Positions 3,701 to 63,400 of a stretch of DNA of 64,000 nucleotides are shown here, one piece after another. Below the pieces are notes generated by a model. That model did no database searches, was not told where the DNA came from, and was given only the letters and a program-made list of their open reading frames with translations. Origin of the DNA: Patescibacteria group bacterium (GTDB lineage: Bacteria > Patescibacteriota > Minisyncoccia > Phycocordibacterales > UBA918); assembly GCA_019752815.1 (NCBI GenBank), contig JAIELQ010000007.1:40922-104921 (forward strand), in the 5' to 3' direction. Position 1 is the stretch's first letter. Every line of letters begins with the position of its first letter. The position numbers were made by a program, and so were the translations under genes.

Positions 3701-3716
3701 TCATCCAAGTTACAAA

Positions 3717-35971: not shown

Positions 35972-37432
35972 ATGAATATATTTAGCGTAGAGGGAGGTTC
36001 AGTAGGGAGACTGGTGACAGGCTTGAGTTTATTAGCTTTGATTATGAGTGCTTTTCCGGTGTCTTTTGCTACGGCGGAAGGTGAAGAAGTTGCTCCAGTT
36101 ACTGATACGTCAGTCGTTAGTAGTTTGGTAGAAGAGACTGAGCCAGGAGATTTGTGTGACAACATGCTAGGTGTTCAATTGGAGGTGCCAACAGGTTGGA
36201 TGGCAGATGGAAGTTCATGTTATCTGGTTGAACCATCAGAGCCTACACTAGAAACAATCGAAGTTTGCAAATATACCTATGGGGAGGGGGAATCATATAT
36301 TCCTGTTGCCGGATGGATAATGTTTGTCACAAATATTGATCCAAATGAAATTATTGCTGCTGGTCCAGATGATGTGCCTGAGGGGTATATCTATGAAGTT
36401 GTCACTGATGATACAGGTTGTGTGACCCAGTCTGTTAATTCTGAAAATGGTCCGTGGTATGTATTTGAGGATATTGAAGACGGTTGGTACCAATCAGATG
36501 TTGATGTGGTAGGTGGTTACGCAACTGAAAGTGAGGGAGATAATTTCTGTGTCTTTTTTGATGATGAGATAATTTCTTCTGAATTGTCGCGCAGTGGTGA
36601 ATATAGTTATAGTTGTGATTTTTATAATGTGGATGATCGCGAAGAGGTAACTGGCTATAAGTGGAATGATGAAAACAACAATGGTGTTAAAGATGATTCA
36701 GAAGTAGGGGTTCAAGGTTGGACTATTACAGCTTCAGATAACACTAAAGCTGGATATTCTCCAGTTTCGGCAGTAACAGATGCCAATGGGTATTATTCAA
36801 TGATGCTTCCTAGTGATGGTAATTGGGTAATTACTGAAGAGTTGCGTTCTGGTTGGACACAAACTGCGGTATATGAAAACGGTTACAAACTAACAGAGGA
36901 AACGGAAGAGGGTGGCTCAATTGCAGAATGTTCACTTAATCTACGTTCAAAATACACAAAGGTTGCAGTTTTGGATGAAGTTACAGCGCCCGAACTCTAT
37001 AATCGTTGTGATTTCCTTAATTATCAAGAGCCGCGTCGTAGTGGTGGCAGCAGTTCGGGAACTCGCGTCAGAGAGCGTGCGACCCCACAGTCGTTAGTGC
37101 TAGGAGCAGCAACTGGCACACCAGCGTGTGGAATGTACCTCCAAGACTACATGCGTATGGGTAACGCTGCCTCTACAACCCAAGTAACAAAACTCCAAGT
37201 ATTCCTTAATGCAGTGGGCATTACTGCACCATTAACTGGAATCTTTGATGCCGGGACTGACGCAGCGGTACGAGCATTTCAAATGCAGTACAAACCAGAA
37301 GTTCTTACACCGTGGTATCTTGCCAAGTTAGTGCCACATGAGAATTCAACTGGTTGGGTGTACCAATTAACACGATGGAAAATCAATAACATTGTGTGCC
37401 CAGGCAGTGAAGCGTATCCGGTTCTAAACTAA
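35972..37432 (+). CDS. Secreted protein with a Cna-B/SdrD-B-like domain and a C-terminal peptidoglycan-binding (PGBD-like) domain
   Basis: Signal peptide; YKWNDENNNGVKDDSEVGVQGWTI...DANGYYSMMLP (SdrD B-like); TQVTKLQVFLNAVGI...DAAVRAFQMQY (PG_binding_1-like). Confidence 0.6.
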   Translation: MNIFSVEGGSVGRLVTGLSLLALIMSAFPVSFATAEGEEVAPVTDTSVVSSLVEETEPGDLCDNMLGVQLEVPTGWMADGSSCYLVEPSEPTLETIEVCKYTYGEGESYIPVAGWIMFVTNIDPNEIIAAGPDDVPEGYIYEVVTDDTGCVTQSVNSENGPWYVFEDIEDGWYQSDVDVVGGYATESEGDNFCVFFDDEIISSELSRSGEYSYSCDFYNVDDREEVTGYKWNDENNNGVKDDSEVGVQGWTITASDNTKAGYSPVSAVTDANGYYSMMLPSDGNWVITEELRSGWTQTAVYENGYKLTEETEEGGSIAECSLNLRSKYTKVAVLDEVTAPELYNRCDFLNYQEPRRSGGSSSGTRVRERATPQSLVLGAATGTPACGMYLQDYMRMGNAASTTQVTKLQVFLNAVGITAPLTGIFDAGTDAAVRAFQMQYKPEVLTPWYLAKLVPHENSTGWVYQLTRWKINNIVCPGSEAYPVLN

Positions 37433-37484
37433 CGTTTGGGATTGAAAAGGAAGATTGACGATAGAATATTGAACATACAACGTA

Positions 37485-37513
37485 GCAAAAAGCACCCTGC
37501 GGGTGCTTTTTGC
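37485..37513 (+). terminator. Terminator hairpin; left copy of a direct repeat flanking the rhuM/doc-like gene
   Basis: gcaaaaagcaccc-tgc-gggtgctttttgc. Confidence 0.65.
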
Positions 37514-37541
37514 TTGTATTAAATGATAGAATAATAAAACT

Positions 37542-38522
37542 ATGCCCAAAAAGGTTTTGGAAAAAAAGAATATACCAAGTAACGTTGTGGTCTACCAGAC
37601 AAAGTCGGGTGCTTTGGAGTTGCGTGGGGATTTTAAGCATGAGATGGTTTGGGCTACGCAAGCACAGATTGCAGATGTTTTTGAAATTGATCGTACAGTT
37701 GCAACAAAGCACATTAACAACACACTTAGGTCGAGTGAAGTTGATGAAAATAACAATGTGCAAAAAATGCACATTGCTAACTCAAAAAAACCAATCAGTT
37801 TGTACTCGTTGGATATTATTTTAGCTGTTGGGTACCGTACAAACTCAGCAAAAGCGATTGAATTTCGCCAATGGGCTACTAAAACACTCAGACAACACAT
37901 TGTGTCTGGCTACACTATCAATCGGGCTCGAATAGCTAAAAACTATGATGAATTCATGGCTACAGTGGCGAAACTGCAAGCAGTTCTGCCTAATAATGCT
38001 GAAATCGATTCTAAAACCACACTTGATTTGGTTAGATTGTTTGCGGATACGTGGTTCTCACTTGATGCGTATGATAAGGAGTCATTAGCACCTTCAAAAG
38101 TTAATAAAAAGAAATTAAAACTAACGGCCAAAGAGTTGCAAGATGGTATTGTGGTTCTCAAAACTGAGTTAATGAGAAAAGGCGAAGCAACCAATAACTT
38201 TGCTCAAGAGCGCAATCATGAGGCGTTGGAAGGAATAGTTGGTAACGTGATGCAAAGTTTTGGTGGAAACGAGCTGTATCCTAGTATTCAGTCAAAAGCA
38301 GCTCACTTACTCTACTTTATAATCAAAAATCACCCGTTTGTTGATGGTAACAAACGTTCCGGTGCGTATGCGTTTGTATGGTTCTTGCAGAAAACAAAAG
38401 TGCTTAACACTAACACTCTTACCCCAACCGCCCTTACTGCTCTCACTATTCTTATTGCAGAAAGTAATCCTGTTGATAAAGAGAAAATCATAGCCTTGGT
38501 CACTACTTTGATTTCAGGATAA
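37542..38522 (+). CDS. RhuM-family protein with a C-terminal Fic/Doc domain (Doc-type HPFxDGNKR motif)
   Basis: N-terminal KSGALELRGDFKHEMVWATQAQIADVFEIDRTVATKHI matches the Virulence_RhuM pattern. C-terminal NHPFVDGNKRSGAYAF is the Doc/Fic active-site motif. Confidence 0.75.
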   Translation: MPKKVLEKKNIPSNVVVYQTKSGALELRGDFKHEMVWATQAQIADVFEIDRTVATKHINNTLRSSEVDENNNVQKMHIANSKKPISLYSLDIILAVGYRTNSAKAIEFRQWATKTLRQHIVSGYTINRARIAKNYDEFMATVAKLQAVLPNNAEIDSKTTLDLVRLFADTWFSLDAYDKESLAPSKVNKKKLKLTAKELQDGIVVLKTELMRKGEATNNFAQERNHEALEGIVGNVMQSFGGNELYPSIQSKAAHLLYFIIKNHPFVDGNKRSGAYAFVWFLQKTKVLNTNTLTPTALTALTILIAESNPVDKEKIIALVTTLISG

Positions 38523-38524
38523 AT

Positions 38525-38560
38525 CACCCAAAAAGCACCCGCCAGGGTGCTTTTTGGGTG
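38525..38560 (+). terminator. Terminator hairpin (16-bp perfect stem); right copy of the direct repeat
   Basis: cacccaaaaagcaccc-gcca-gggtgctttttgggtg. Confidence 0.7.
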
Positions 38561-38617
38561 GTTGTCAGATCACAGAGCGAATAACAGAAGGGTTAATGGA
38601 CTACATTTGCTATACTA

Positions 38618-39847
38618 GTGGTACGTATGGATACACTTCATGACTTTTTGCATTCGTTGATTAATCATATTGTTCCGCATGAGGGGAATGATTACCGCCC
38701 GCATTTATTGCAACGGGGAGCGATGATATTGATGCTGATTTTGATTTTATTGTCATTTTTGGCGGCTAATTTCCAGGCGCTGTTGTGGCAATCGTCTGAT
38801 TGGTTGGTGGGAGCAGTGTTGCCGGCAGTCGTGGTTGATCTGACCAATACCGAGCGGGCAGATTTATCGTTGCCAAAATTAACCCGTAATCCGGTGCTCG
38901 ATGAGGCGGCCACGTTAAAGGCACAAGACATGGCCCGCAATAGCTATTTCTCACACGACAGTCCGACGGGAGTGACACCGTGGCACTGGTTTAAAGAAGC
39001 GGGATACACATTTGCCCATGCGGGTGAAAATTTGGCGGTGTATTTTAGTGATTCGAGTGAAGTGGTTGAAGCCTGGATGAATTCGCCAACCCACCGGGCC
39101 AATATTGTGGGGAGTCAGTATCGAGAAATTGGTGTAGGGGTAGCTCGTGGCACCTATGATGGGTTTGATACCGTGTTTGTGGTGCAAATGTTTGGTACGC
39201 CAGCCGCTATGCCAGTAGCTCGTGAGGTGGTAGCTGAAACTCCTCCTACCGTGATTACCGTTCCCGTTCCGCTCGCTATTGCGACTGAACAAACAAATTT
39301 GGCTACTGTAGAAACCGAAAGCTCTCCAACAGAGCCGTTAGTTGCCGGACAAACAAGTGATATACCAGAGCTAGATATGGTGGTTGTAAAAAACGTATCA
39401 GAAACTGAGACGGTGGCTGCTCAAACTGCCGCTGCAACTGAACCAATGGCAGTAGATGAATCAATTACCCAAATGAATACTGCTACTACGCCGGCGGCCT
39501 TTGCCGAAGAGGCCAAGACGGTGATGGGTGCGGCAGAAGCCATTAGTTTGTATTCAGGAATGGCTGCATCTTCGAGTAATCTCACTCCAGCGCCGTACAC
39601 CACTGTTGATTTAGAAGCTGAAGCCGCTCCAAAGGTAGCGGTCCTCGCCACCGAACCAAGTAAGCTGCTGCAGCTCATTTATCTAGTGCTGGGAGGGATC
39701 ACAGCGTTTGTACTACTGTTGTCCGTGATGCTCGAGTGGCGACATCATCGACCGATCCAGACTGCCTACGGTATTGTATTGCTTATGATTATGGCCGGAT
39801 TGTTCTATGTGCACACCACAATTGTGGCCGGTGCGATTATTCAGTAG
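38618..39847 (+). CDS. CAP/SCP/PR-1-domain protein (YkwD-like), TM-anchored, with an Ala/Thr-rich linker and a C-terminal TM segment
   Basis: LKAQDMARNSYFSHDSPTG...HAGENLAV...EAWMNSPTHRANI matches CAP-domain motifs. Confidence 0.7.
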   Translation: MVRMDTLHDFLHSLINHIVPHEGNDYRPHLLQRGAMILMLILILLSFLAANFQALLWQSSDWLVGAVLPAVVVDLTNTERADLSLPKLTRNPVLDEAATLKAQDMARNSYFSHDSPTGVTPWHWFKEAGYTFAHAGENLAVYFSDSSEVVEAWMNSPTHRANIVGSQYREIGVGVARGTYDGFDTVFVVQMFGTPAAMPVAREVVAETPPTVITVPVPLAIATEQTNLATVETESSPTEPLVAGQTSDIPELDMVVVKNVSETETVAAQTAAATEPMAVDESITQMNTATTPAAFAEEAKTVMGAAEAISLYSGMAASSSNLTPAPYTTVDLEAEAAPKVAVLATEPSKLLQLIYLVLGGITAFVLLLSVMLEWRHHRPIQTAYGIVLLMIMAGLFYVHTTIVAGAIIQ

Positions 39848-39853
39848 TTGAGT

Positions 39854-40294
39854 ATGGCACAAACAAGTATTACGACAATTTATAAAAGTGACACCAGTAA
39901 CACGGGAGCGACCCTCACTCCTTTGTATACCTCTGCGCCAGCAGCGGGCTTTCCGGCACCGGGGGATGATATGGTAGAAAAGTCACTGAATGTTCATGAG
40001 TATCTGGTAAAACATCCGGTATCGACGTTTTTTGTCCGGGTGGAAGGAGATTCGATGGAAGGGGCGGGGATTTTCTCGGGTGATATTTTAGTGGTTGATA
40101 GAAGTGTGGAGGCAAAAGCCGGTCGCATCGTGGTAGCTGCCGTTGGCGGTGGGTTGGTGGTTAAACGCCTCGCCCTGCTCGCGGGGAATATGGTTCTCAT
40201 GTCTGAAAATGAAGCCTATGCACCAATAACAGTGACAGGGGATGAGGAGTGTTTTGTGTGGGGTGTAGTAACCGGCAGCGTCCGCCACTTCTAG
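39854..40294 (+). CDS. umuD: UmuD-like S24 self-cleaving peptidase (LexA C-terminal-domain homologue without an HTH)
   Basis: PAAG|FPAP is an Ala-Gly cleavage-site motif. VRVEGDSMEGAGI carries the Ser nucleophile and LVVKRL the Lys. The protein is 147 aa with no DNA-binding domain. Confidence 0.7.
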   Translation: MAQTSITTIYKSDTSNTGATLTPLYTSAPAAGFPAPGDDMVEKSLNVHEYLVKHPVSTFFVRVEGDSMEGAGIFSGDILVVDRSVEAKAGRIVVAAVGGGLVVKRLALLAGNMVLMSENEAYAPITVTGDEECFVWGVVTGSVRHF

Positions 40295-42181: not shown

Positions 42182-42217
42182 AAAAAGCCTTAAGGATTTA
42201 ATCCTTAAGGCTTTTTG
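42182..42217 (+). terminator. Rho-independent terminator
   Basis: aaaaaagccttaaggattt-aatccttaaggcttttt, a perfect 14-bp stem. Confidence 0.7.
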
Positions 42218-42258: not shown

Positions 42259-42984
42259 ATGACACATGAGGATATTTCCACGGAGGCATATGAATGGGTT
42301 AAGGATAATCCAGCAGTCCTGATTGAGGCTATTGCTGGTAGGTATAAAGATTTAGAAGAGGGTCGTGTAGCAGTTTTTATGGCTGGTGCACCAGGCGCTG
42401 GAAAGACCGAATTTTCACGATGTCTTATTCGAGACACGTTCGGTCCAGACACAACACTAATCGTAAGAATTGACCCGGATGAAATTAGGATGCTAATCCC
42501 TACATATATAAAAGGTAAAGCAGAGTTGTTTAATCGAGCAACTACAAAAGGGGTTGAGATACTAGTTGATCATTGCTATGACAGAAATTTAGATAAAAGT
42601 TTCTTGTTGGATGGCACATTAAGTAACTGTGAAGTTGCAAGAAGAAATATCGAAAGAGCTTTAGATCGGGGTAGAAAAGTACTAATCTATTTTGTGTATA
42701 AAGATCCGGTAGTTGCGTGGGATTTTACTCAAAAGAGAGAGAAAATCGAAGGACGTAATATTCCTAAAGAGAGTTTTATTAATCAGTATTTCGGTTCAAT
42801 TGAGACTATTAATCAATTAAAAAAAGAATATGGAAACAGAATACAAATCGATTTAGTGCAGCTTGCTGTGCCAAATTTACAAAAGCCTCTTATTACTGAC
42901 TATAAATTTGAGTTCAATATTAGCAGTGTTGACGGGTATTTAAATACAAGGTATTCTAAAGATACATTAAGTGAACTGCTATGA
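42259..42984 (+). CDS. Zeta-toxin family P-loop kinase (PezT/zeta-like)
   Basis: VFMAGAPGAGKTEF is the Walker A motif. IVRIDPDEIRMLIPTY matches the zeta/PezT GGQSGAGKT...IDGDSFRSQHPHY pattern. Confidence 0.65.
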   Translation: MTHEDISTEAYEWVKDNPAVLIEAIAGRYKDLEEGRVAVFMAGAPGAGKTEFSRCLIRDTFGPDTTLIVRIDPDEIRMLIPTYIKGKAELFNRATTKGVEILVDHCYDRNLDKSFLLDGTLSNCEVARRNIERALDRGRKVLIYFVYKDPVVAWDFTQKREKIEGRNIPKESFINQYFGSIETINQLKKEYGNRIQIDLVQLAVPNLQKPLITDYKFEFNISSVDGYLNTRYSKDTLSELL

Positions 42985-43175
42985 AGTATATCCTTAAATT
43001 TCTTGGAAGAGAGGGAAAAAAACGTTCGGGTATTAAAAGCCCCGTCTACGTCTTTTTTGCAGAAGCGGACGCAACTGTAAAAACAAAAGCCTATAGAAAA
43101 GCACTTCGAAGTGCTTCAGAAGATCAAATGTCTATTTTATCAAAGTATGATAAAGAGTTTGCACAGATGAATTAA
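42981..43175 (+). CDS. Small basic hypothetical protein, translationally coupled (ATGA) to the zeta-like gene
   Basis: 64 aa. The start overlaps the upstream stop, and a terminator follows. Confidence 0.35.
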   Translation: MKYILKFLGREGKKRSGIKSPVYVFFAEADATVKTKAYRKALRSASEDQMSILSKYDKEFAQMN

Positions 43176-43198
43176 AAATCCCTTGAAAGGGATTTTTT
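43174..43198 (+). terminator. Rho-independent terminator
   Basis: aaaaatccc-ttgaaa-gggattttt. Confidence 0.7.
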
Positions 43199-49509: not shown

Positions 49510-49756
49510 AGCTACTTCAGCGCTTGATAGTGAAAGTGAGGTTGAAATCCAAAAGGCGCTTCATATATTAATGAATGGCAAAACGGTAATTGCAGTAGCT
49601 CATCGCCTGTCGACATTGCGGGAGATGGATCGAATTATTGTGTTGGAAAATGGGAAAATTATCGAAGACGGCACCCACGAGACCTTAAAAGATGCTGGTG
49701 GTACGTATTCCAAGCTATGGAGTCATCAGGCAGGCGGGTTTATCAATGAAAAATGA
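49439..49756 (+). CDS. ABC exporter, C-terminal NBD fragment (Walker B / D-loop / H-loop)
   Basis: [26 protein letters not shown], then AHRLST. This continues the LSGGQK of the upstream ORF in another frame. Confidence 0.75.
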
Positions 49757-49762
49757 GCTACA

Positions 49763-49844
49763 GAGTGAGAAAGTCTGCGAGACTTTCGTAAGAGGTTGCC
49801 AGCTTTTTTTGTAAAAAACGATAACCTGAACCGTTTCTGTAAGA
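49763..49844 (+). repeat. Family-A structured intergenic repeat (copy A2)
   Basis: gtgagaaagtctgcgagactttcgtaagaggttgccagctttttttgtaaaaaacgataacc...gtttctgtaagaag. Confidence 0.7.
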
Positions 49845-49903
49845 AGTAGCGACAATGGCGAATTTTGTTCCGAGTTTACCCCTTCATAGGGTAAACTCCT
49901 GGA
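49845..49903 (+). repeat. M2 hairpin module (copy a), followed by a degenerate partial copy at about 49953-49974
   Basis: tagcgacaatggcgaattttgttccgagtttaccccttcatagggtaaactcctggaac. Confidence 0.7.
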
Positions 49904-50041
49904 ACTTGTACTTGTGCTGATTTTATACCACTTCACCATCTAACTGAACTATTAACGACAATGGTGAATTATGTTCCAAAACTGCATATATATGTACACA
50001 AGAATGAAAAATTGAGGTCAGTACACGGTACAATATAGGTA

Positions 50042-51955
50042 ATGAGCGCTTTTCCGTATGCGTGGTTTCTCAGAGCCAGTCTAGTGTTGGTTGTTATTTT
50101 TTGTGCGATTATGGTAGTGCCTGATTTGTCGTGGGCCCGCAATATCCAGGAGTACAAAAACACGATTTCTAATTCAGGTCCGGAGCAGCCGAGTAACCAC
50201 ACGTTATCGTTTACGTTAACTACAGCAGTTAGCCCTGGTGCCTATATGGAATTCATTCCGCCTGCCGGATTTGAAACATTAAATTCACCTAATTTTAGCG
50301 AACGGAATGTTGAGTTGATTATAAACGGTGTGTCTCGTTCGGCTGGTGCAGTTCAAACTGCTACGGACGATATGGTAGAAATTTTCCCTGGTGCACCAGG
50401 GATGGTACGGTACACATTAAACACCAGTACCGGTATTTCATCGGGGTCTTCAATACAGTTTAAAGTTGGAAATCATACAACTGATGCGGTACCACTCGTG
50501 TTCACGTTTTCGCCAGGTTTTGGAACTTCATCATCCCCGCTTGATATTAAGCCTATAAAAAATAGTGCAGATACTGGTACACATTCAGTTGATTTTAAAA
50601 TCTATGATGGAGGAGTGGTGGCTGATGCTGGTTTTGTAATTGCGATTGTTGATGGCGTGGGTGTGGGGCCGGCAGATACCACTGAGGAAGTACCGCCACA
50701 ACGTTTTAATGGAGCACCGGCAAATTTTGTTGGTGGTACGACCCAGTCAGTTGAAGTTTCTTTAGAGACCGATGAGTTTGCTGTTTGTAAATTTTCTTCT
50801 TCAACCGGTGTTGACTACAGCGCGATGACGAGTACGTTTACCAATACCGGTACGATTTTCCATACGCGAATTGTTCCAGTTAATCCACAAACTACCTACA
50901 GCTTTAATGTGCGCTGTATTGACGATGAAGGAAACTTTAACATTGACGATTATCTTATTGAATTTTTGGTTGGTGCTATTCCAACCGGTACACCAACAAC
51001 GACTGGTTCCACTACCGCTGCCGGATCGGGTTCGGGTACTGGTACCGGCGGTTCTGGTTCAGGGTCGGGTTCTGGTAATACTACAAGTGGATCAAACGGT
51101 TCAGGTGGAACACCAGGTAGTCAAACTGGTAGTGGCGGTACGGGCGGCGGTGGCGGTGGCGGTTCTGGTGGCGGTTCGGGCGGCGGTGGCGGCGGTGGTT
51201 TTGAAAGTACCGATGGCCCGTACCGGAGTGGAGATGGACAGGTAACTATTACCGGATTTACAGCACCCCGCAGTGCAGTAGCTTTTTTGGTTGACGGAAA
51301 AATTGCTAAAACCGCTACTGCTGGTGGTAACGGTGAATATACGGTTGTGCTTGATTTAATAGCGCGCGGTGCGTACACGTTCGGGGTGTATTCAACTGAT
51401 GCTGCCCGAGTTAAAACATCTACGTTTAGTACTTCGTTTACGGTTACCGGTGCTCGGGCATCAAACCTCTCGAACATTATGATACCGCCTTCAATTCTTG
51501 TTAGTCCCGATCCGGCGACACCTGGTTCTCCGATTACTATTTCTGGGTACACACTCCCTAATGCTACGGTCACTCTTGAAAACGAAAAAGACGGTAGTGC
51601 TGCGTCACGAAAAGTATTTACCGGGACCTCTAATGCTAGTGGTGCTTATAGTATTTCTGTTGACAGTAATGGTTTTACAAATGGCACTTACAAGGTACGC
51701 GCAAAAGCTGTGCAGGCGTCGGGGCTACAGACAAACTTTTCCAACTACACACTGTATGGTGTAGGCGAAGCTGCTAACCGAGCATTAAACACTGATCTTA
51801 ATCGAGATGGAAAAGTGAACCTTGTCGACTTTTCGATTTTGCTTTTCTGGTGGGGAACAGCTGGCGGAGATTCAAACCCTCCAGCAGATATTAACAGTGA
51901 TACGAGAGTTAACTTGACGGACTTTTCTATCCTGCTCTTTAACTGGACCGGATAA
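50042..51955 (+). CDS. Secreted multidomain protein with a Gly/Ser/Thr-rich linker, Ig-like repeats and a C-terminal type-I dockerin repeat pair
   Basis: Signal peptide/TM segment. The N-terminal domain is shared with the 44832 protein. The (GSGT)n linker is low-complexity. DLNRDGKVNLVDFSILLF and DINSDTRVNLTDFSILLF are dockerin DxNxDGxVNxxD Ca-binding repeats. Confidence 0.7.
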   Translation: MSAFPYAWFLRASLVLVVIFCAIMVVPDLSWARNIQEYKNTISNSGPEQPSNHTLSFTLTTAVSPGAYMEFIPPAGFETLNSPNFSERNVELIINGVSRSAGAVQTATDDMVEIFPGAPGMVRYTLNTSTGISSGSSIQFKVGNHTTDAVPLVFTFSPGFGTSSSPLDIKPIKNSADTGTHSVDFKIYDGGVVADAGFVIAIVDGVGVGPADTTEEVPPQRFNGAPANFVGGTTQSVEVSLETDEFAVCKFSSSTGVDYSAMTSTFTNTGTIFHTRIVPVNPQTTYSFNVRCIDDEGNFNIDDYLIEFLVGAIPTGTPTTTGSTTAAGSGSGTGTGGSGSGSGSGNTTSGSNGSGGTPGSQTGSGGTGGGGGGGSGGGSGGGGGGGFESTDGPYRSGDGQVTITGFTAPRSAVAFLVDGKIAKTATAGGNGEYTVVLDLIARGAYTFGVYSTDAARVKTSTFSTSFTVTGARASNLSNIMIPPSILVSPDPATPGSPITISGYTLPNATVTLENEKDGSAASRKVFTGTSNASGAYSISVDSNGFTNGTYKVRAKAVQASGLQTNFSNYTLYGVGEAANRALNTDLNRDGKVNLVDFSILLFWWGTAGGDSNPPADINSDTRVNLTDFSILLFNWTG

Positions 51956-51973
51956 AAAATGAGCCACAGAGCG

Positions 51974-52023
51974 TAGCGACAATGGCGAATTTTGTTCCGA
52001 GTTTGCTCCTTTCCTAGAGCAAA
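51974..52023 (+). repeat. M2 hairpin module (copy b) with compensatory stem changes relative to copy a
   Basis: tagcgacaatggcgaattttgttccgagtttgctcctttcctagagcaaactcctggaac. The stem acccc/ggggt of copy a is replaced by gctc/gagc here. Confidence 0.7.
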
Positions 52024-52071
52024 CTCCTGGAACCTGTACTCGTTGAGATGATATCTATTGATGTTTGAATT

Positions 52072-54440: not shown

Positions 54441-54482
54441 ATAATGAGCCCCGTTTTCTATGTGCGTGGGTTTTAAAAAGTC

Positions 54483-57400
54483 GTGATACGTCCGTTTAAG
54501 TTACTAAAGAAATCGACCTTTGGAGCACTACTAACAATTACTGTTATTAGTGGTTTTGTCGTGTACGGAGCTTATATTGATCGGACAGTGTACACCACCG
54601 AACAACTAGTCATTATCCCTGGTAAAGTAACGTCAGATTCGTGGCTTGGTTTGGAATCAGTGTTAGTGCAAGATATTTCTGAATACTCTCTCTATCAAGA
54701 CTTTACACAAAAAAATTCAGCCTATATTTCAGAACTAGGATTGTTTTCAGCACAAGAGAGTGAGGATGCTCCAACACCGGATGAGCCAAATGAAGTGTCT
54801 ATTGATGGCGACTCTGCTTCAAGCAGTGACGAAGTTCCAAGTACTGACAGTGAGTCAGGTGGTTCAGAGAATGGTGACAATGAGTCGTCTGAGACTGATG
54901 CACCTACTGCTGAAACATCACAACCAGAACCAGAGTCTGAACCTGAACCACAACCAGAACCATCTTCTGAATCTGAGTCAGTATCATCAATTACAAATCC
55001 AGGAGATCCAGTATGGGGTGTATTTACGAAAACCAATAACCGCTTTTTGTTGGCGCAGGCGATTGTGACTGAAGAAGCTTCTGAACCTGAACCTGCTTCT
55101 TCACCAGAACCTGAACCAGCGGTCGTGACTACAGAAGAGTCAGGTACCGAAGAGACTGCTGTAGTGGACAATGTGCCAGTAGCTGAAGAGACTCTTGAAA
55201 CTGCTGTCACTGAAGAATCAGTGGAGACTACACCGGAAGGTAGTGGGGCAACTAATGAAGGTGAAGAAGCAGAAATTCCTGTCAGCGAATCAATTGAGGG
55301 TCAATCTGAGGCAGAGCCTGCAACAGAAGAAGATACAAGTAACGATTACGTGATGGCACCGTGCGATCCTGCAAGTGGATGTGCAACCCATAGTATGTTG
55401 TTCTCTGATTTCTTGATGCCGGATTTTGACGGTGGTACTGTTCTAGATTCAATTCAACTGCGGTTATCACTGGCCGCACAAACAAAACAAAATCGTGGAG
55501 AAGGGCCACAACGTTTTTTGGTTGAGTACACATACGACACTAGTACAACGTCTACCGACTGGATTACTGCTTCTGTACTAGATATTGATGATGAAATCAG
55601 TAACAGTATTAACGGCGGATATTACCTGCTCTCATTACAGCCGCCAAAAACTGCAGGTGAGATTGCTAACTTACAAATTAAAGTTTCCTATCAAGGGAAT
55701 GTGAGCGATTTGGAAACAGCCTACGTTGAAGGCATGTGGCTCGAAGTTACTTCAGGTAAGTTTTTTGAAGAGGGAGCTGGTGAAGCGTATAGTGATGAAG
55801 TAACCTACGGTCGTGATTTGTTGGCGCCAGAGCTTAACACATTAAACAACGCTGATCTCGATCCAACATTGGGGACGTTGCCACAATTTACACTCTCCTA
55901 TGATCCGCAACAAGGATTCTTTAACCGTATTTTTAGAACACTATTTTCAGAGAACACATTTGTTGTCGAGCGTATCAATTTAACAGATAGTAATGGTGAT
56001 GCTATTGAAGTGCCATTTGGAATTGAGTATCACGACAATGAAACATGGACTATGAAGGCGCAACAAATGCCTCATAAATTACGACCGGGTAAATACCTAG
56101 TGACTGTTGATATTCTAGAAAATGAAGAACGATATACTGATACGTTTGAATTTTACTGGGGGGTATTGGCAGTCAATACCAAGAAAAGTATGTATTTCCC
56201 CAATGAGGAAGTCCAACTCAATCTCGCAGCCTTAACTGACAAGGGCGATACTATTTGTAACGCTAATTTGGAACTTAAGATTATCGATCCCAAAGGAACT
56301 ATTACTGAAGTACCTGTCAATCAGTCAGGTGCATGTGGGCCAAATAACGTCACCGATATCCCAGACTACATTGCTGAATTCTCCAATACTGGAGAATGGG
56401 GTGCATACACTATTCAATTGCAGCATAAAAATGCCTCAGGAGAAGTTGTGCATAAAATTTCTGATAGTTTTGAAGTTCGTGATTACATTCCATATGATAT
56501 TGAGCGCACTGCACCAACACGTATTTATCCACCTGCCCCCTACGATGTAACGCTAAAAGTAAAAGCATATCGTGATTTTACGGGTGATGTTACCGAGCGT
56601 GTCCCGCGTGGGTTTGTAATTGAAGGTCTTGAAGGAGCTTTGGTCAGTACCTTGCCGGAGTACACATTAATTACCTGGCCGGATGTGACAATGATGGAAG
56701 GTGATGAGCGAACCTTCTCATATAATTTTGATGCCCCTGACATCAGTCCGTACATGTATCTCCTGGGGCCACTTGATATGGATGGGTTTAGTGAATTGCG
56801 TCAATGGCAGGTGGCTTCTGATGCGTTAAATAACATCGGCTGGTTTACCGGTACACGCACGGTAGCTAGTTCCAGTTTAAATACCGCTCCGAGCCCAATG
56901 CAGTGGTCAACCAGTTCAATTGATAATTATTACTACACTCACTCTACCTCTTCTGATTCGCAACGAGTGACTTTACGACAAAGTGGTGATTATTTAGTGT
57001 CAGTTAACCTCCCGCAACAGCGAGCCGATATTAATGTTAGTCGCACTCGGGCTGCTATTGAAGTTCGAAAAAACGGTGTTGCCGTTCCGGAAGGTTTAGG
57101 TCGCAGTGGTTACATTACGGGAGGTAACGGCGCAGTGCACTCGGAGTCATCCTCCAACGTTTCGTTTTTGATGACGGGAGTTACCGCTAACGATTATATT
57201 GAGATATTTGTTGAGAATCTCACTACAATTGATGCGGGGGATGTGATTAATGTCAGTGGATTAGCTTCAATGTATATTGAGTATTTGCGACCTACGGAAA
57301 CAGTGTTTGCCGCTACCACTACCAGAACAACAAACTCTACAAATTTTAACCAAGTTACCGCTTTTCCTCTTGAGTGGATTGAAACACGTCAAGATGCTGG

Positions 57401-60400
57401 ATTCTCTCACTCAAATACCATAACACCACAAAATATCACCCTGACTGCAACAGGTACGTACATGGTTCATGTAAACCTGCCGTTACAACATACAAATGCC
57501 CAACAAAACATTGCCGGGCGCATCTTGCTTGATGGTGCAGTTGTAAGTGGCGGTCATTTTGGTCAGGGATTTTCGGACGGGAATGCAAACGAAAGTGATG
57601 GGGACTCCAGTATTCATTTCTCGGGTGTTATCATCGCTACGTCAACTAATCAAGTCCTTACAGTAACAGCTGCGCGCGAGGGTAATACTGGAACAACAAC
57701 TGTGCCTGCAGGGTTTACTGGTTCGATAGTTATTCAAAAATTACCAACCTCAGGTGTTATTGCGTTGCGGGGACGGGATTTGGTAGGTGGTACAAACTGG
57801 AACTCAGCTGTTGCTTCATCAACCAGGTTCAATACACAATTAGCATACGACAATAGTGTTTTTACTCATTCAACAACTACTAATAATCACCAGATTACTG
57901 TTAACCAGAGTGGAGATTATATTTTGAATTTCACTGACGCTGTTACCTCAGCGACACAATTCGTAAACAATAGAATTACTGTCTCAGTAGGAAGTACAAC
58001 TGTTACCGGTGCACAATCCAAATCAAACTTCTTGCGTAACTTAAATGCTGCCAATGAAGCGTCCACCAACCTGGTTTTCCTCCTGGAGAATGTGACAGCT
58101 GGTCAAATAATTACGGTAAATTCACAACAAGAAGGAGCTGCCGGCACTATCAGTACAACGACTGATGCCACGTTATTGTTGTGGAAAAAAGCAGATTTAA
58201 ACTTCCGGGCAATAGCACCAACAATGTTTGCAACTCCGTTTGATAATGCGCGCTTTGCATCCACTACTCCTTGGTTTGATTTTCAAAGTAACGATCCTGA
58301 TGGTTCGTCTGATATAGAATATGAATTTTCGATTTCAACATCGTCTGATTTTGCAACTGCGACTATTCGAGTTTCGGGTACTGATGCCGGCTTCTCAAAT
58401 ACAGCCTCAACTTCGGATACGTCACCATTTGTAGAGGCTAATCGCGTACGGTTCCAACTTCAGCCTGCAGATACACTGACTGACCTTACAACGTATTACT
58501 GGCGTGTTCGAGCACGAGATGTGAGTGGTTCTGGTGAGTTTGGGGACTATTCTACAACCCAAAGTTTCTCTATTAATACCGGAGATACGGTACCGAATTG
58601 GTATCAAACGCTTTCAGGTCAATTCCAAACCAACTCGTTGTTTGGCGCTATTTCAAATGATCTGGAAAATAACGTTAGAGTAAACTCAACAGTTAGTTCA
58701 GAAATAATGGTGGCGTACGGCGATAGTACTAGTGCAACACCAAAGTACCGATTGTGGGGTGGTACGAGTTGGGGGATTGAACAGTCTGCGATCAGTGTTT
58801 CGGGTACGATTAACTGGGTACGGTTGGCTTCTGGTGTGAAGCGAGATGAATATATGCTCGTAACGCTAGATCAAAGTAATGACACCTTTGCGCAGGTATA
58901 CAATGCCACGTCTTCAACGTGGGGCAGCAGAACATTGCTCGCTGACAACGTGGCTGATGTAACTCGTCGCGGTATTGCTGTTGGGTATGAGAGTGTCTCG
59001 GGAGACGCAATGGTTGTATCTTGTGATAACACAAAAAATCCGGTATATCGTATTTGGAATGGTAGTACTTGGTCTGCAACTACCAGTATTACAACGGTCG
59101 TCACTGGAGTGTGTAACTTCCTTGAGTTAGCTTCTGACCCAGCATCAGATGAGATGATTTTGGTGGTGCGCGATAGTGGAGCAGCGATTGGAAACAACTA
59201 CGAAGCGTTGGTCTGGGACGGAAACGCGTGGGGTAATAGTCGTGTGTTTGGTTCGGTTCAGGCTGGGCAACTGTTGCGGGCTGGTATCGGTCTAAAATAT
59301 GAGTCGTCTGGTGACCAGGCGATGGTGGCGGTTACTAACGGTGGTAATAACAACTTTATTTATACAACCTGGACTGGTACTGGATGGACCAGTAATGCCA
59401 CTCAGCCACTCTTTAACGATTTCGAGTTCGGTACTCTGGTGTCTGATCCAAACTCGGACAAATTGACCCTTTGTTACATTAATGATAGTGCGCGTGTAGG
59501 TGCGGTACGGTGGGACGGTGGAGTTTGGTCGACATTTGTTGATTTATCAAACACCGGTAACTCTCAAGCGGGACGACCGATTGATTGTGAGTTTGAAACA
59601 ACTGCTGGCCGTTCAGGAAATATTTTAGCTACCTATTCGGATACTACCAATTTGCGCTACCAAGTATATGCAACCTCATCCTGGGGTGGGCAGCAAACAG
59701 TCACCGGAGTAGGTTCTGGGGCCGGGTTATTCTGGGTGCAAACCGAGCGGGCAGGGGATGGGACAATTGTAGCGCTCTCTCATGACGATGCGGTTGCCGG
59801 TGACGAGCTTGAGTCATCGTATTGGAACGGTACAAGTTGGTCTACCAAACAAGTAATTGCGCCTAATCCATCTTCAATTATCGGTGCTCCGTATGAGACT
59901 TTTGAAATGGCGGCCAAACGGTATCAATTTACTCAAGGAATTGTTACAACACAACCAATAACATTTACAAGTGTTTCAGGTCAGCCAACGTGGGGTGATT
60001 TGACGTTTAGTTCAACTGAACCATTCGGGACTGATGTGACAGTGCGCTTAAAATACACGAGCACGACAACATGTGATACCTATATCCCTAATGGTGTTTT
60101 GGCGGGTAATGGCACTGGTTTTGATACTGCGTCGCTACCGGTAAACTTAACTGCTCTTTCAACTACAACCTATAGTCAAATTTGTCTTGAGGCCACTTTG
60201 ACAACTTTTGGTTCGGCGAGTGCGTCTCTCGACGACTGGTCATTGTCATGGGTACGTAAACCAAAACTTACTCAAAATGCATTTCGCTGGTATGGTAACG
60301 GTAGTTTCCTGACTCCAACCGACCCGTGGCCACTTGGGGTACTTGATGTGCTCGAAAACACCGCACTTACCGCCAATGAGTCGGTAAATCTCAATGATGT

Positions 60401-63400
60401 TATTCGACTGCGAATGTCCCTTCAGTCTGCTAACGTGGCGTTACCAACATCAACTGCAGCCTTTAAATTACAGTATGCTGCTGGGTTGTCTTGTAATCTC
60501 CTGAGTGGGTGGCAGGATGTAGCGAGTACTAGTAGTAGTACAGCAGCATGGAGAGGGTTTGCTAACTCCATTGTTGGCAGTGATTGGCTATCAGCCTCGT
60601 GGGTCAGGCGAACTAAAATAACTGTCGATAGAACCTTGGTCAGTGCGCCCGTGACTGATTTCCCAGTGTACGTGAACTTAGCGAATCTTCCGACCAGCTT
60701 TTTCAATAACGTAAAGGCGGATGGAGGTGATATACGAATCACGGGAAGCGATGGTTTGACTGAACTACCATTTGAACTCGTATCAATTAACACTACTACC
60801 CGGGTGGGCGAGCTTCACTTTAAGGCCAACCTGGCTACGACAACCAACAGTGAGTTCTATATTTATTATGGCAATCCTAGTGCGAGCGGGTATGCGGTGA
60901 CCGCACCGTTTGGTCGCAATAACGTATGGACTAATGGGTATGAAGCGGTATATCACTTGGATTCAAATCCGGCGAGCAACATGATTGACAGTACCGCTAA
61001 TGGTCGAACGTTAACAACTAACGGTGGTATGACAGCTACCAATAGTACCAGTAGTGTCATGGGTAACGGTGTGAACTTTGATGGTGTAAATGACCGTCTT
61101 ACGAATGCCGGTTGGTCTTGGACAGCTACACCGGTTACCGTCACAGCTTGGAATAATGTTGCTACAGCCGAAGTGCAAAGCTCAAACCTGTTTGGGTTTA
61201 CGGCTGTTGGTAATGAACGGTTAGCGACCCATGCGCCATGGAGCGATAACACTATCTATTGGGATTATGGTACCTGTTGTGCCGCACCAGGTCGGTTACT
61301 CACCAACTACACTGCCTACCGCAATAAATGGACACACATCGGTTTAGTGTCACAAGGTACACCGGGATCCTTCATGGGTATCTACCTTGATGGTACAGCG
61401 ATTGCAACCAGTAGTACTTCGGACGATCCAAATGTTACTTTGACTGGCTTCTCGCTCGGTAGTGATAATCCAAGTGGTGGTAATCATCACCGAGGTCGAA
61501 TTGACGAGTATCGAATTGCGTCTGTTGCCCGTACCGGAGGTTGGATTGCAACTGAACGAAATAATCAATCTAATCCGACAGGATTTTATGCTCTCTCCGC
61601 TGAAGAGCTCATTGGAGATGGTCGGACTATACCAAGTACGGTACTTGCTAGTTCAACGTTCCCAGAAACATATGAGGAACAAAATCCAACCCAAAATAAT
61701 CGTTTCGGATTACAAGTCGGACAAAATGCCGAATGGGATTTTGTATTACAAAATAACGCAGCTACAGCTGACACCAACTACTGTTTCCGAATGGTAAATG
61801 CTGATGGCTCGGTCCTCAATAGTTACGCAAATTATCCGAGGTTAATTACCAATGCGCCCCCGCTTGCTCCGGTGTTGACTGCGCCATTTGATAATCGCAT
61901 GTTGGCTTCCACCTCTCCTTCATTTGAATTTGCAGCTGTCGATCAAGCTGACGACGTGGTGTCATATGAAATCATGGTTGATAACGACGTAGATTTTACA
62001 TCGCCTACTTTTACACGAGAATCAAACGCCAACTTCTCGTTGTTCACTAACCTCGCTGCGCCATCGGAACGTGGTCAATATACATCAGGGCAAACGATTC
62101 AGTTCATTCCAAACGTAGCTCTTTCAAACGGAGTGACGTATTGGTGGCGAGTACGGGCAAAAGATGATACTGGCTCAGGTGCATTTGGTAATTGGTCTGA
62201 ACCAAAAAGCTTTACTATAAATACGGCTACCGTACTCACTACGTGGCATCAAACAACGGGAGATCAGTTTAGTACTAACAGTCTAACTGATGCGATTACC
62301 AGTACGTCTACCAATGATGTAGGAATAAACATCGGATTTACCGTGGCTACCACCACCTCGACAGCGGTTGATTATGATGAGCGTGAAATTGGTAATGCCT
62401 GGGGAAGTGTTACCTTTACCCAAAATGTTACTTCAGGTTCAATTCGACACTTCGTTGAGTACGAGGTTACTACTAATGCCTTTGAACTTGTACCGGACTC
62501 AGTGTTACCTGGTAACAGTGCTGGTTTTACGACGTCACCAATTAACTTAGCGTCGCTTGATACTACCGTGTATAACGTCTTGCGTGTTACTTCGGTTTTG
62601 TCTGGTTCGCCGACGTTACCTCGACTCCAGGATATGACAATTGTGTGGAGTCAAAAAATTGAACCGCCAACACTTGTGTCCTTGTTTGATAATGCTAAAT
62701 CGAACTCGACTCTCCCGGCCTTAACCTTTACGACAGCTGACCCGCAGCTTGATGATTTGCAATACGAAGTACAGCTCTCGACTGCGTACAATTTTGCAGC
62801 CTCCTCTACCTTTTTGTCTGGTGTTGATGCTGGATTTTCTAATGTCACTACTCCGGCCGATACGTCTCCGTACAATTCAGGTAATACAATTCGTTACCAG
62901 ACACAAACGGCGCTCACTAATAATCTCACCTACTGGTGGCGTGCTCGTGCTCGTGACCCTGGCGGTAGTAATAGTTGGTCAAATTATTCAGAACCCAAAA
63001 GCTTTACTATCGATACGGGGGTAAATACTTCAGTTTGGTTCCAAACAATTGGTGAGCAGTTTGCAACTAACGAGAACGTTAACATAGAAACAAATGCTGG
63101 CGGTGCTCAGGTGGCCACGGTGGTAAATGGGGTAATGGCAGCGTATGGTGAGGGAACAGGGCAGGCGCCACAGTACAGATTGTGGAATGGAACAGCCTGG
63201 AGTACCCCGGCGTCAGCCGATACGGTGGGAGCACAGATTAGATGGACCAGATTAAAGGCTGCTCCAACACGACCAGAGTACGCACTTGCTACGCAAGGTA
63301 CTGATCTTGATGTAAATATCCAAATTTACGATTCGGTGACTGAGTCATGGAGTAACATGTTTAAAATTCATGATAACGCCACCAACGTAGTCTATCGAAC

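Follow-up and report, generated by a model that had tools for sequence, protein, structure and literature searches.

A RhuM-Doc gene bracketed by a doubled, terminator-like hairpin: a putative single-gene cassette in a variable chromosomal slot of a Patescibacteria group bacterium

Introduction

How does a single gene come to stand between two nearly identical hairpins on a bacterial chromosome? This question is raised by a locus within the 64,000-nucleotide (nt) stretch of contig JAIELQ010000007.1, from a Patescibacteria group bacterium, that was analysed here as a whole and is called the window throughout. At this locus, a gene whose product joins a RhuM-type domain to a Doc-type Fic domain (RhuM-Doc) lies between a gene encoding a surface or secreted protein and a gene encoding a CAP-domain protein. 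The original prediction, made from the sequence of the window, had described a toxin-domain gene without an evident cognate antitoxin, flanked by direct repeats of about 29 nt that also form terminator hairpins, and had proposed that the gene was acquired by insertion. Comparison of the locus with its relatives leads us to a reading that we consider reasonably probable, namely that positions from about 37513 to 38560 make up a compact cassette with one gene, placed in a variable slot of the chromosome and bracketed by a doubled copy of the resident terminator. More can be learned from this locus than from the gene that it carries: the locus allows filled sites to be compared with empty ones in Patescibacteria, bacteria with tiny genomes and few recognisable mobile elements, and it presents an accessory gene whose limits are marked to the base pair by a duplicated terminator.

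The slot is empty or differently filled in several relatives

Relatives of the locus were retrieved through homologues of RhuM-Doc, through homologues of the CAP protein and through the C-terminus of the surface protein, and the contents of the slot that separates the terminator of the surface-protein gene from the promoter of the CAP and umuD genes were compared. If the gene had been inserted, a relative should carry an empty site with a single hairpin, and such a site was found in locus L091 (GCA_020049755.1), in which one hairpin (AAAAAAGCTCC AGTG GGAGCTTTTTT) is followed by the CAP gene and in which the neighbouring proteins are 83-87% identical in amino acid sequence to those of the window. 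In the four outgroups L098-L101, the surface-protein gene, one terminator and the CAP, S24, GH18 and umuC genes follow one another as far as the contigs extend. In L085, about 90% identical at the amino acid level, one hairpin precedes an unknown minus-strand gene of 125 amino acids. The slot of L092 and L093 contains a hairpin, a gene for a secreted protein of 333 amino acids, a second copy of the hairpin and then AbiEii/DUF6922; in L092, the 333-amino-acid gene lies between AAAAAGCTCCC GTCA GGGAGCTTTTT and CAAAAGCTCCC GCAA GGGAGCTTTTG, and its product belongs to no Pfam family and is unrelated to RhuM-Doc (BLASTP E = 2.2). Finally, L107, L112, L003, L001 and L047 carry a RhuM-Doc gene whose product is 81-90% identical to that of the window, accompanied by an NYN gene in L001. 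Since the slot thus holds RhuM-Doc, the 333-amino-acid gene with AbiEii/DUF6922, the 125-amino-acid open reading frame (ORF), NYN or nothing, it is, as judged from this set of relatives, a variable hotspot.

The empty slots with one hairpin support the proposed acquisition of an inserted cassette, the ancestral slot being in that case empty and provided with one terminator. The insertion is not recent, because relatives whose nucleotide identity is about 80% have the same gene in this slot. Coding DNA identity between the window and each of L107, L085 and L091 is about 80-84%, and with all four genomes at this same distance an attempt to tell gain from loss on the basis of identities failed.

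Some additional features of these relatives should be mentioned. In L047 (Kaiserbacteria, GFS_12189), the RhuM-Doc orthologue (1415-2600) is split into two frames near 2170-2186 and is probably a pseudogene. In L112, an IS3-type transposase pair (rve and HTH_Tnp_1, 760-1802) replaces most of the upstream surface-protein gene, of which all that precedes the hairpin and RhuM-Doc is a remnant of the 3' end with the C-terminal codons. A conserved, structured-looking element of about 65 nt (ccttctgttgcttcggtggcagaacgcgaaaccgcaacc.tgtgttgcggtttctgcatttcc) is found inside the empty slot of L091 (505-570) and between RhuM-Doc and NYN in L001 (2795-2860), and its exact 24-nt core is present on the minus strand of L010 (12377-12400), inside the cassette array of a distant genome. 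This element of L091 and L001 has no match in Rfam and is absent from the window.

Two hairpins with a common stem are confined to the slot

The repeats described in the original prediction are present as written (gcaaaaagcaccctgcgggtgctttttgc at 37485-37513 and ccaaaaagcacccgccagggtgctttttgg at 38528-38557), and the full perfect palindromes are slightly longer than the roughly 29 nt reported (Table 1). Both hairpins have 12+12 identical arm bases, the common arms being CAAAAAGCACCC and GGGTGCTTTTTG; the loops and the outer extensions of the two palindromes are different. The repeats themselves stand, but they are only putatively direct: since the arms are perfect palindromes, each copy reads both as a direct and as an inverted repeat of the other, and the loops alone carry an orientation. 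The left loop, TGC, is slightly closer to TGGC, the reverse complement of the right loop, than to GCCA itself.

Each hairpin consists of a GC-containing stem-loop followed by a T-run (T5), as is usual for an intrinsic terminator. The predicted RNA folds are stable (-23.8 kcal/mol, z -6.0, for the left hairpin and -34.1 kcal/mol, z -8.8, for the right one), and the right hairpin was the top match of a terminator scan. The terminator role assigned previously is borne out as a prediction; as intrinsic terminators that work in both directions, the two hairpins would probably shield RhuM-Doc from the genes on either side.

To what extent the pair is specific to this slot was then considered. The pattern AAAAAGCACCC-N3-6-GGGTGCTTTTT has exactly two matches in the window compared to 0 expected from 100 shuffles, and a looser hairpin pattern retrieved the same two sites only. 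Within the window and 112 fetched loci, related and unrelated (about 1.3 Mb), the motif is confined to the slot and is, in this sample, not the common, generic terminator that would make the flanking of the gene coincidental. In addition, 70 perfect A-tract/T-tract hairpins were collected from 99 loci (1.36 Mb), giving 51 within-locus pairs. The 6-nt stem core is common to the two members of just three of these pairs (in the window, in L072 and in L092), and all three enclose one gene each. In L072, which belongs to a distant lineage, a perfect doubling of 34 nt surrounds the RhuM-Doc gene. Chance sharing of a stem between two hairpins is unlikely.

The right hairpin as a paralogue of the resident hairpin

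An orthologue of the left hairpin is found at the same position in L107, L003, L112, L092, L085 and L091. L003, L091, L092 and L107 also have the same C-terminal end of the surface protein just before the slot, and remnants of this end are found there in L085, L112 and L001. Judged by its sequence and its place, the left hairpin is the resident, terminator-like hairpin of the upstream surface-protein gene. The stems of the left and right hairpins co-vary within a genome, as they read GCACCC/GCACCC in the window, GCTCCC/GCTCCC in L092 and GCTCCC/GCTCTC in L112, where the right copy has decayed. We conclude from these patterns that the right hairpin is a paralogue of the putative resident terminator and not an independent or genome-wide element.

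The proposed cassette would accordingly be made up of an extended -10-like promoter, the RhuM-Doc ORF and the terminator hairpin. The doubling of the hairpin could have arisen either by target duplication at insertion or, when cassettes were exchanged, by recombination or gene conversion at the hairpin. Once DNA has been taken up, such cassettes would most likely be gained, lost and swapped through homologous or short-homology recombination. In this respect, Patescibacteria carry competence and recombination genes, and the group has been reported to be naturally competent (PMC12455944).

Several observations weigh against the cassette as just described. First, the loops of the two hairpins differ (TGC vs GCCA). 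Secondly, among the relatives that carry RhuM-Doc the right hairpin is perfect in the window alone, as it has a GCCC stem in L107 and is degenerate in L003, L047 and L112; since the right copy has decayed in these relatives, the pair of the window was probably homogenised or regenerated fairly recently. Thirdly, L003 combines a left GCTCCC hairpin with a right remnant of the GCAC type, and such mixed stems fit a cassette with its own terminator followed by conversion better than a simple target duplication. Fourthly, RhuM-Doc is present in the window, L107, L001, L003, L047 and L112 and absent from the similarly distant L085 and L091, a pattern that would be compatible with repeated loss and with repeated gain alike. 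Lastly, a zeta-toxin gene that is inserted elsewhere in the window lies between two unrelated terminators (42182-42216 and 43174-43197), so that duplication of a hairpin is not a general rule.

Flanking repeats and arrays in the RhuM-Doc family

The flanks of RhuM-Doc genes were also compared across 77 homologous loci. A shared word of at least 14 nt in the 200-nt flanks was found for 12 of the 77 RhuM-Doc genes compared to 28 of 1,007 other ORFs of the same loci, an excess with an odds ratio of 6.5 (p = 8e-6), and wider flanks gave 14 of 76 vs 27 of 767. No tandem copies of the RhuM-Doc gene occur in the 77 loci. The flanking repeats range from 28 to about 275 nt with 80-100% identity and differ between loci: the duplication corresponds to the last 40 nt of the upstream gene in L109, to 56 nt of the CAP promoter together with the first ~30 nt of the CAP ORF in L047, and to a 173-nt stretch that takes in the 5' end of a P-loop gene in L026. 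In other loci, RhuM-Doc lies in repeat arrays of the same orientation with a spacing of 0.5-2.6 kb, which count seven copies in L010, six in L065 and four each in L059 and L070; L025 has a smaller array. The ORFs that border the arrays of L010, L065, L059 and L070 are housekeeping or unknown ones (YceG, serine hydroxymethyltransferase, methyltransferase), with no integrase among them.

The part of these results that appears new, namely the signature of a doubled terminator together with the family-wide excess of flanking repeats, amounts to a modestly novel variant of hotspot and cassette biology. A far broader model can be drawn from it, according to which RhuM-Doc, and perhaps other single genes of Patescibacteria, would move as promoter-ORF-terminator cassettes without a recombinase of their own, duplicating 28-175 nt of local target, often the terminator hairpin; used over and over, this process would give rise to cassette arrays that look like those of integrons but need no integron integrase, and the hairpins would double as recombination substrates. 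We regard this model as speculative and, taken in all its parts, improbable. More modestly, the locus, together with flanking repeats that are about six times commoner at RhuM-Doc genes, suggests that single defence or toxin genes are gained, lost and swapped by a recurrent route that may need no integrase. Such a route, if true, would help to explain how accessory genes are renewed in streamlined, naturally competent bacteria.

With regard to the arrays themselves, a 29-nt element, GCTCC-N11-GA(T/C)GTTCGAACC, separates small ORFs, RhuM-Doc being one unit, in L010 (8337-15142, seven copies), in L041 (1144-2887, three copies) and in L059 (2229-6042, four copies, reverse complement). The array of L010 starts beside the YceG gene, with no integrase adjacent. 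In the gammaproteobacterial locus L065 (8818-14121), RhuM-Doc is one unit of the six-copy array, which has attC-like CCTAAC...GTTAGG boxes; this array begins directly after the serine hydroxymethyltransferase gene, and no integrase was found among the tested ORFs of the 21-kb locus. Locus L110 overlaps L092, probably in the same genome, and carries a RhuM-Doc gene about 9 kb upstream, at another site and with its own 40-nt duplication.

Known systems and alternative explanations

Among known systems, the slot resembles the minimal mobile elements defined in Neisseria (PMC3787668), in which whole-gene cargo varies between the same conserved flanking genes without a mobility gene. Unlike in those elements, the cargo is here also bracketed by a duplicated terminator hairpin of 28-36 nt, which lies outside that definition, and exchange by way of the flanking genes is only presumed.

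The alternative that survives best, although we hold it to be improbable, is that a dedicated trans-acting system uses the hairpins as its recombination sites, be they integron-like attC sites, Xer/dif-module-like sites or ends of the IS200/IS605 type, and that the RhuM-Doc cassette is one of the units which it mobilises. Such a system would account for the bracketing of two different cargo genes by the same hairpin at one slot and for the same-orientation arrays that contain RhuM-Doc in L010, L065, L059 and L070, and the CCTAAC...GTTAGG boxes of the L065 repeats are like those of integron attC sites. Arms of 9-11 nt around a short centre, moreover, resemble the core site of a recombinase. On the other hand, the central loops of the two hairpins differ, which would block exchange by a tyrosine recombinase, and the duplications around close homologues consist of arbitrary local sequence (gene ends, promoter) with no fixed site. 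Neither an integrase nor a transposase was found among the window ORFs of at least 120 amino acids or beside the arrays tested, and the same window ORFs include no phage gene and no tyrosine recombinase. A recombination system dedicated to the hairpins is possible but unsupported.

The integron form of this alternative deserves a closer comparison. As in integron cassettes and CALINs (clusters of attC sites lacking integron integrases), one ORF is followed by a palindromic element, and homologues stand elsewhere in arrays, those of L065 with attC-like boxes. An integron was taken to require attC sites of about 57-141 nt with the R''/R' boxes RYYYAAC...GTTRRRY, and a nearby integrase or an array of attC sites. 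By contrast, the hairpins of the window, of 29-36 nt, are far shorter than attC sites, and they are perfect palindromes with neither extrahelical bases nor the RYYYAAC/GTTRRRY boxes. The window has just two copies of them, no IntI was found among its ORFs of at least 120 amino acids or beside the tested arrays, and, unlike an integron cassette, the cassette of the window has a promoter-like element of its own. The integron reading of the hairpins was rejected on these grounds, and a literature search combining integron, attC and Patescibacteria returned nothing relevant. An insertion sequence or transposon was likewise rejected, as RhuM-Doc is the sole ORF between the hairpins and the duplications around its homologues vary from 28 to about 275 nt instead of being of fixed length.

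Slightly less probable again would be a cassette that arrived with an unrelated terminator of its own, which came to be nearly identical to the resident one only through later gene conversion; the repeats would then say nothing about insertion. This would agree with the stem types, the right hairpin being of the GCAC type in the window, L003 and L047 and the left one of the GCTCC type in L003, L112, L092, L091 and L085, and with the young look of the right copy of the window compared to its decayed orthologues. However, even the two stem types are the same in all but one of 11 base pairs, a likeness too close for terminators of separate origin in view of a rate of 0.009 for random pairs, and the doubling is seen again around a different cargo in L092 and, as a perfect 34-nt repeat, in the distant lineage of L072.

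Coincidence or convergence of two ordinary terminators that happen to have A-tract, GC-rich stem and T-tract in common is very unlikely: the genome does hold many perfect bidirectional terminators with A-tract and T-tract, one of which, at 3714, also begins with AAAAGCAC, and the pair was picked after the whole window had been scanned, but the motif is found in this slot only, three of 51 pairs share a core, each around one gene, and independent doublings occur in L092 and L072.

The RhuM-Doc gene and its product

The domains assigned to the product in the original prediction, an N-terminal RhuM-type domain and a C-terminal Doc-type Fic domain with the motif HPFVDGNKR, were both recovered as Pfam matches. 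Virulence_RhuM (PF13310) matches residues 71-134 with 61.5 bits (gathering cutoff 33.7) and covers profile positions 7-70 of 252 only, so that just the N-terminal module of RhuM is present. Fic/DOC (PF02661) matches residues 206-282 with 48.5 bits (cutoff 24), which places the protein in this superfamily. In the Doc subtype, where K takes the position that the second G occupies in the canonical Fic motif, the motif reads HxFx(D/N)(A/G)NKR. The sequence H264-P-F-V-D-G-N-K-R272 conforms to it, and all of its residues (264-272) but V267 are invariant in 33 homologues. The score against TIGR01550 (DOC_P1), 33.1 bits, lies under the NCBIfam cutoff of 38.65, and the protein is thus not assigned to the type II toxin-antitoxin (TA) toxins by this profile. 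A full-length match was obtained with PADLOC PDC-S23 (E = 1.6e-99, residues 13-325 on profile positions 5-324 of 327), which makes the protein, by profile, a single-gene phage-defence candidate; a literature search for 'PDC-S23' found no paper.

In structure comparisons, the sole match of a PDB sequence search was the death-on-curing protein 9vzc, and the best fold match of the AlphaFold model, which is of moderate quality (mean predicted local distance difference test score, pLDDT, 64), was P1 Doc (3k33_A) with a target-normalised TM-score of 0.72. Fold matches of the N-terminal part of this same model to MarR-type winged-helix proteins were too weak and were not used. The protein therefore resembles P1 Doc of the Phd-Doc type II TA module in its Doc-type motif, its Fic/DOC match and its fold match, and it differs from P1 Doc in its length of 326 amino acids, with an extra N-terminal region of the RhuM type (~200 amino acids), and in that no adjacent gene for Phd or another antitoxin was found.

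The absence of an evident antitoxin ORF, as noted originally, was upheld by a search for a Phd-like antitoxin near the gene: small and overlapping ORFs had no significant Pfam match, the lone match (E = 0.05) being below the family cutoff. RhuM-Doc is separated from its neighbours by gaps of 109 and 104 nt, the adjacent small antitoxin gene of a Phd-Doc module is lacking, and RhuM-Doc is a lone gene at homologous loci too. The description as a toxin lacking its antitoxin is better replaced by membership of a very large single-gene family. By analogy with P1 Doc, the C-terminal domain would be expected to phosphorylate a translation factor such as EF-Tu and thereby arrest growth. From homology, its activity could be held in check within the same polypeptide instead of by a separate antitoxin, and the protein may function as a stand-alone stress or phage-defence module.

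The family (NCBI 'virulence protein RhuM/Fic/DOC family protein') is known and very large, and nothing sets this member apart. More than 7,300 homologues have the same two-domain architecture, and at least 578 RhuM-Doc loci were confirmed in species-representative genomes; among the loci listed, most belong to Patescibacteria, and others to Gammaproteobacteria, Bdellovibrionales, Nitrospirales, Actinomycetota and one archaeon. A scan of viral contigs yielded one weak full-length relative (33% identity) and matches that cover the Doc region only, and a phage origin was considered unlikely given this near-absence of full-length homologues. The RhuM-DOC fusion was noted earlier as a likely toxin in restriction-modification (R-M)/PrrC neighbourhoods (PMC3710099), BifA of Streptococcus equi subsp. 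zooepidemicus, which joins RhuM and Fic, was investigated as a streptococcal virulence factor (PMC6529018), and a LexA box that is bound in vitro has been reported for a doc/rhuM gene (PMC3998124). The protein of the window has the two-domain architecture and the length of this fusion family, PDC-S23 and BifA included. Unlike in the contexts described, its gene stands alone in a Patescibacteria chromosome, outside an R-M/PrrC operon or a pathogenicity island. The family as a whole is a huge and still uncharacterised group of toxin or defence candidates, of which the RhuM-Doc gene is an ordinary member.

Upstream of RhuM-Doc, an extended -10-like element was read from the sequence 9 nt before the ATG (Table 1), and no Shine-Dalgarno sequence is visible. 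Comparable TGnTATAAT-like boxes stand before RhuM-Doc in L112 and before the CAP gene in all relatives. RhuM-Doc probably has its own promoter and a leaderless or near-leaderless mRNA.

Surroundings of the locus and other sites in the window

The coordinates of the features at the locus are given in Table 1.

Table 1. Features of the RhuM-Doc locus (window coordinates)
Feature	Coordinates	Strand	Description
Surface/secreted protein gene	35972..37432	+	486 amino acids; SdrD_B and C-terminal PG_binding_1 (Pfam); ends ...WKINNIVCPGSEAYPVLN*
Left hairpin	37484..37514		AGCAAAAAGCACCC TGC GGGTGCTTTTTGCT; 14-bp stem, loop TGC
Extended -10-like element	37524..37532	+	TGATAGAAT
RhuM-Doc gene	37542..38522	+	326 amino acids; N-terminal RhuM-type domain, helical linker, C-terminal Doc-type Fic domain
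Right hairpin	38525..38560		CACCCAAAAAGCACCC GCCA GGGTGCTTTTTGGGTG; 16-bp stem, loop GCCA
Right conserved flank	38577..38616	+	GCGAATAAC (38577-38585) and TTTGCTATACT (38606-38616, extended -10-like box)
CAP-domain protein gene	38627..39847	+	Pfam CAP; start taken at MDTLHD; first gene of the conserved right flank
UmuD-like Peptidase_S24 gene	39848..40294	+	Pfam; right flank, syntenic in all relatives

Both motifs of the right flank are found upstream of the CAP gene in L003, L085, L107, L047 and L001 and partly in L091; in L092, only the TTTGCTATAAT box is found at this place. A protein of 406 amino acids at NCBI (P0121) is 100% identical to the CAP protein, and RhuM-Doc likewise has an NCBI entry of 100% identity; these identical proteins belong to a Patescibacteria group bacterium. 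The G+C content is lower in the cargo (0.39 for RhuM-Doc, 0.36 for zeta) than in the flanks (0.49 for CAP, 0.51 for S24). The window is an ordinary stretch of chromosome with genes for glycoside hydrolases, RNase J, a sortase, large surface proteins, ABC transporters and umuD/umuC, and an Rfam scan of it gave nothing at the gathering threshold.

A second variable slot lies further downstream, where the zeta-toxin gene (PF06414, G+C content 0.36, 42259-42984) splits the otherwise adjacent GH18 and umuC genes. In relatives, this slot holds zeta in L085, a DUF3800 gene in L091 and nothing in L092 and in the outgroups L099 and L101.

Elsewhere in the window, a 637-amino-acid Big_6/dockerin gene (50042-51955) has an imperfect direct repeat of ~80-100 nt on both sides (49746-49990 and 51952-52054). 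The repeat is made of blocks that are 95% and 77% identical, holds a hairpin (GAGTTTACCC...GGGTAAACTC) and has no Rfam match; a weaker third copy lies at 49952-49990, and the downstream copy precedes an HSP20 gene. Past 55 kb, almost no ORFs are listed because a single ORF of at least 3,174 codons occupies 54477-63998 and runs off the end of the window; it presumably encodes a giant surface protein.

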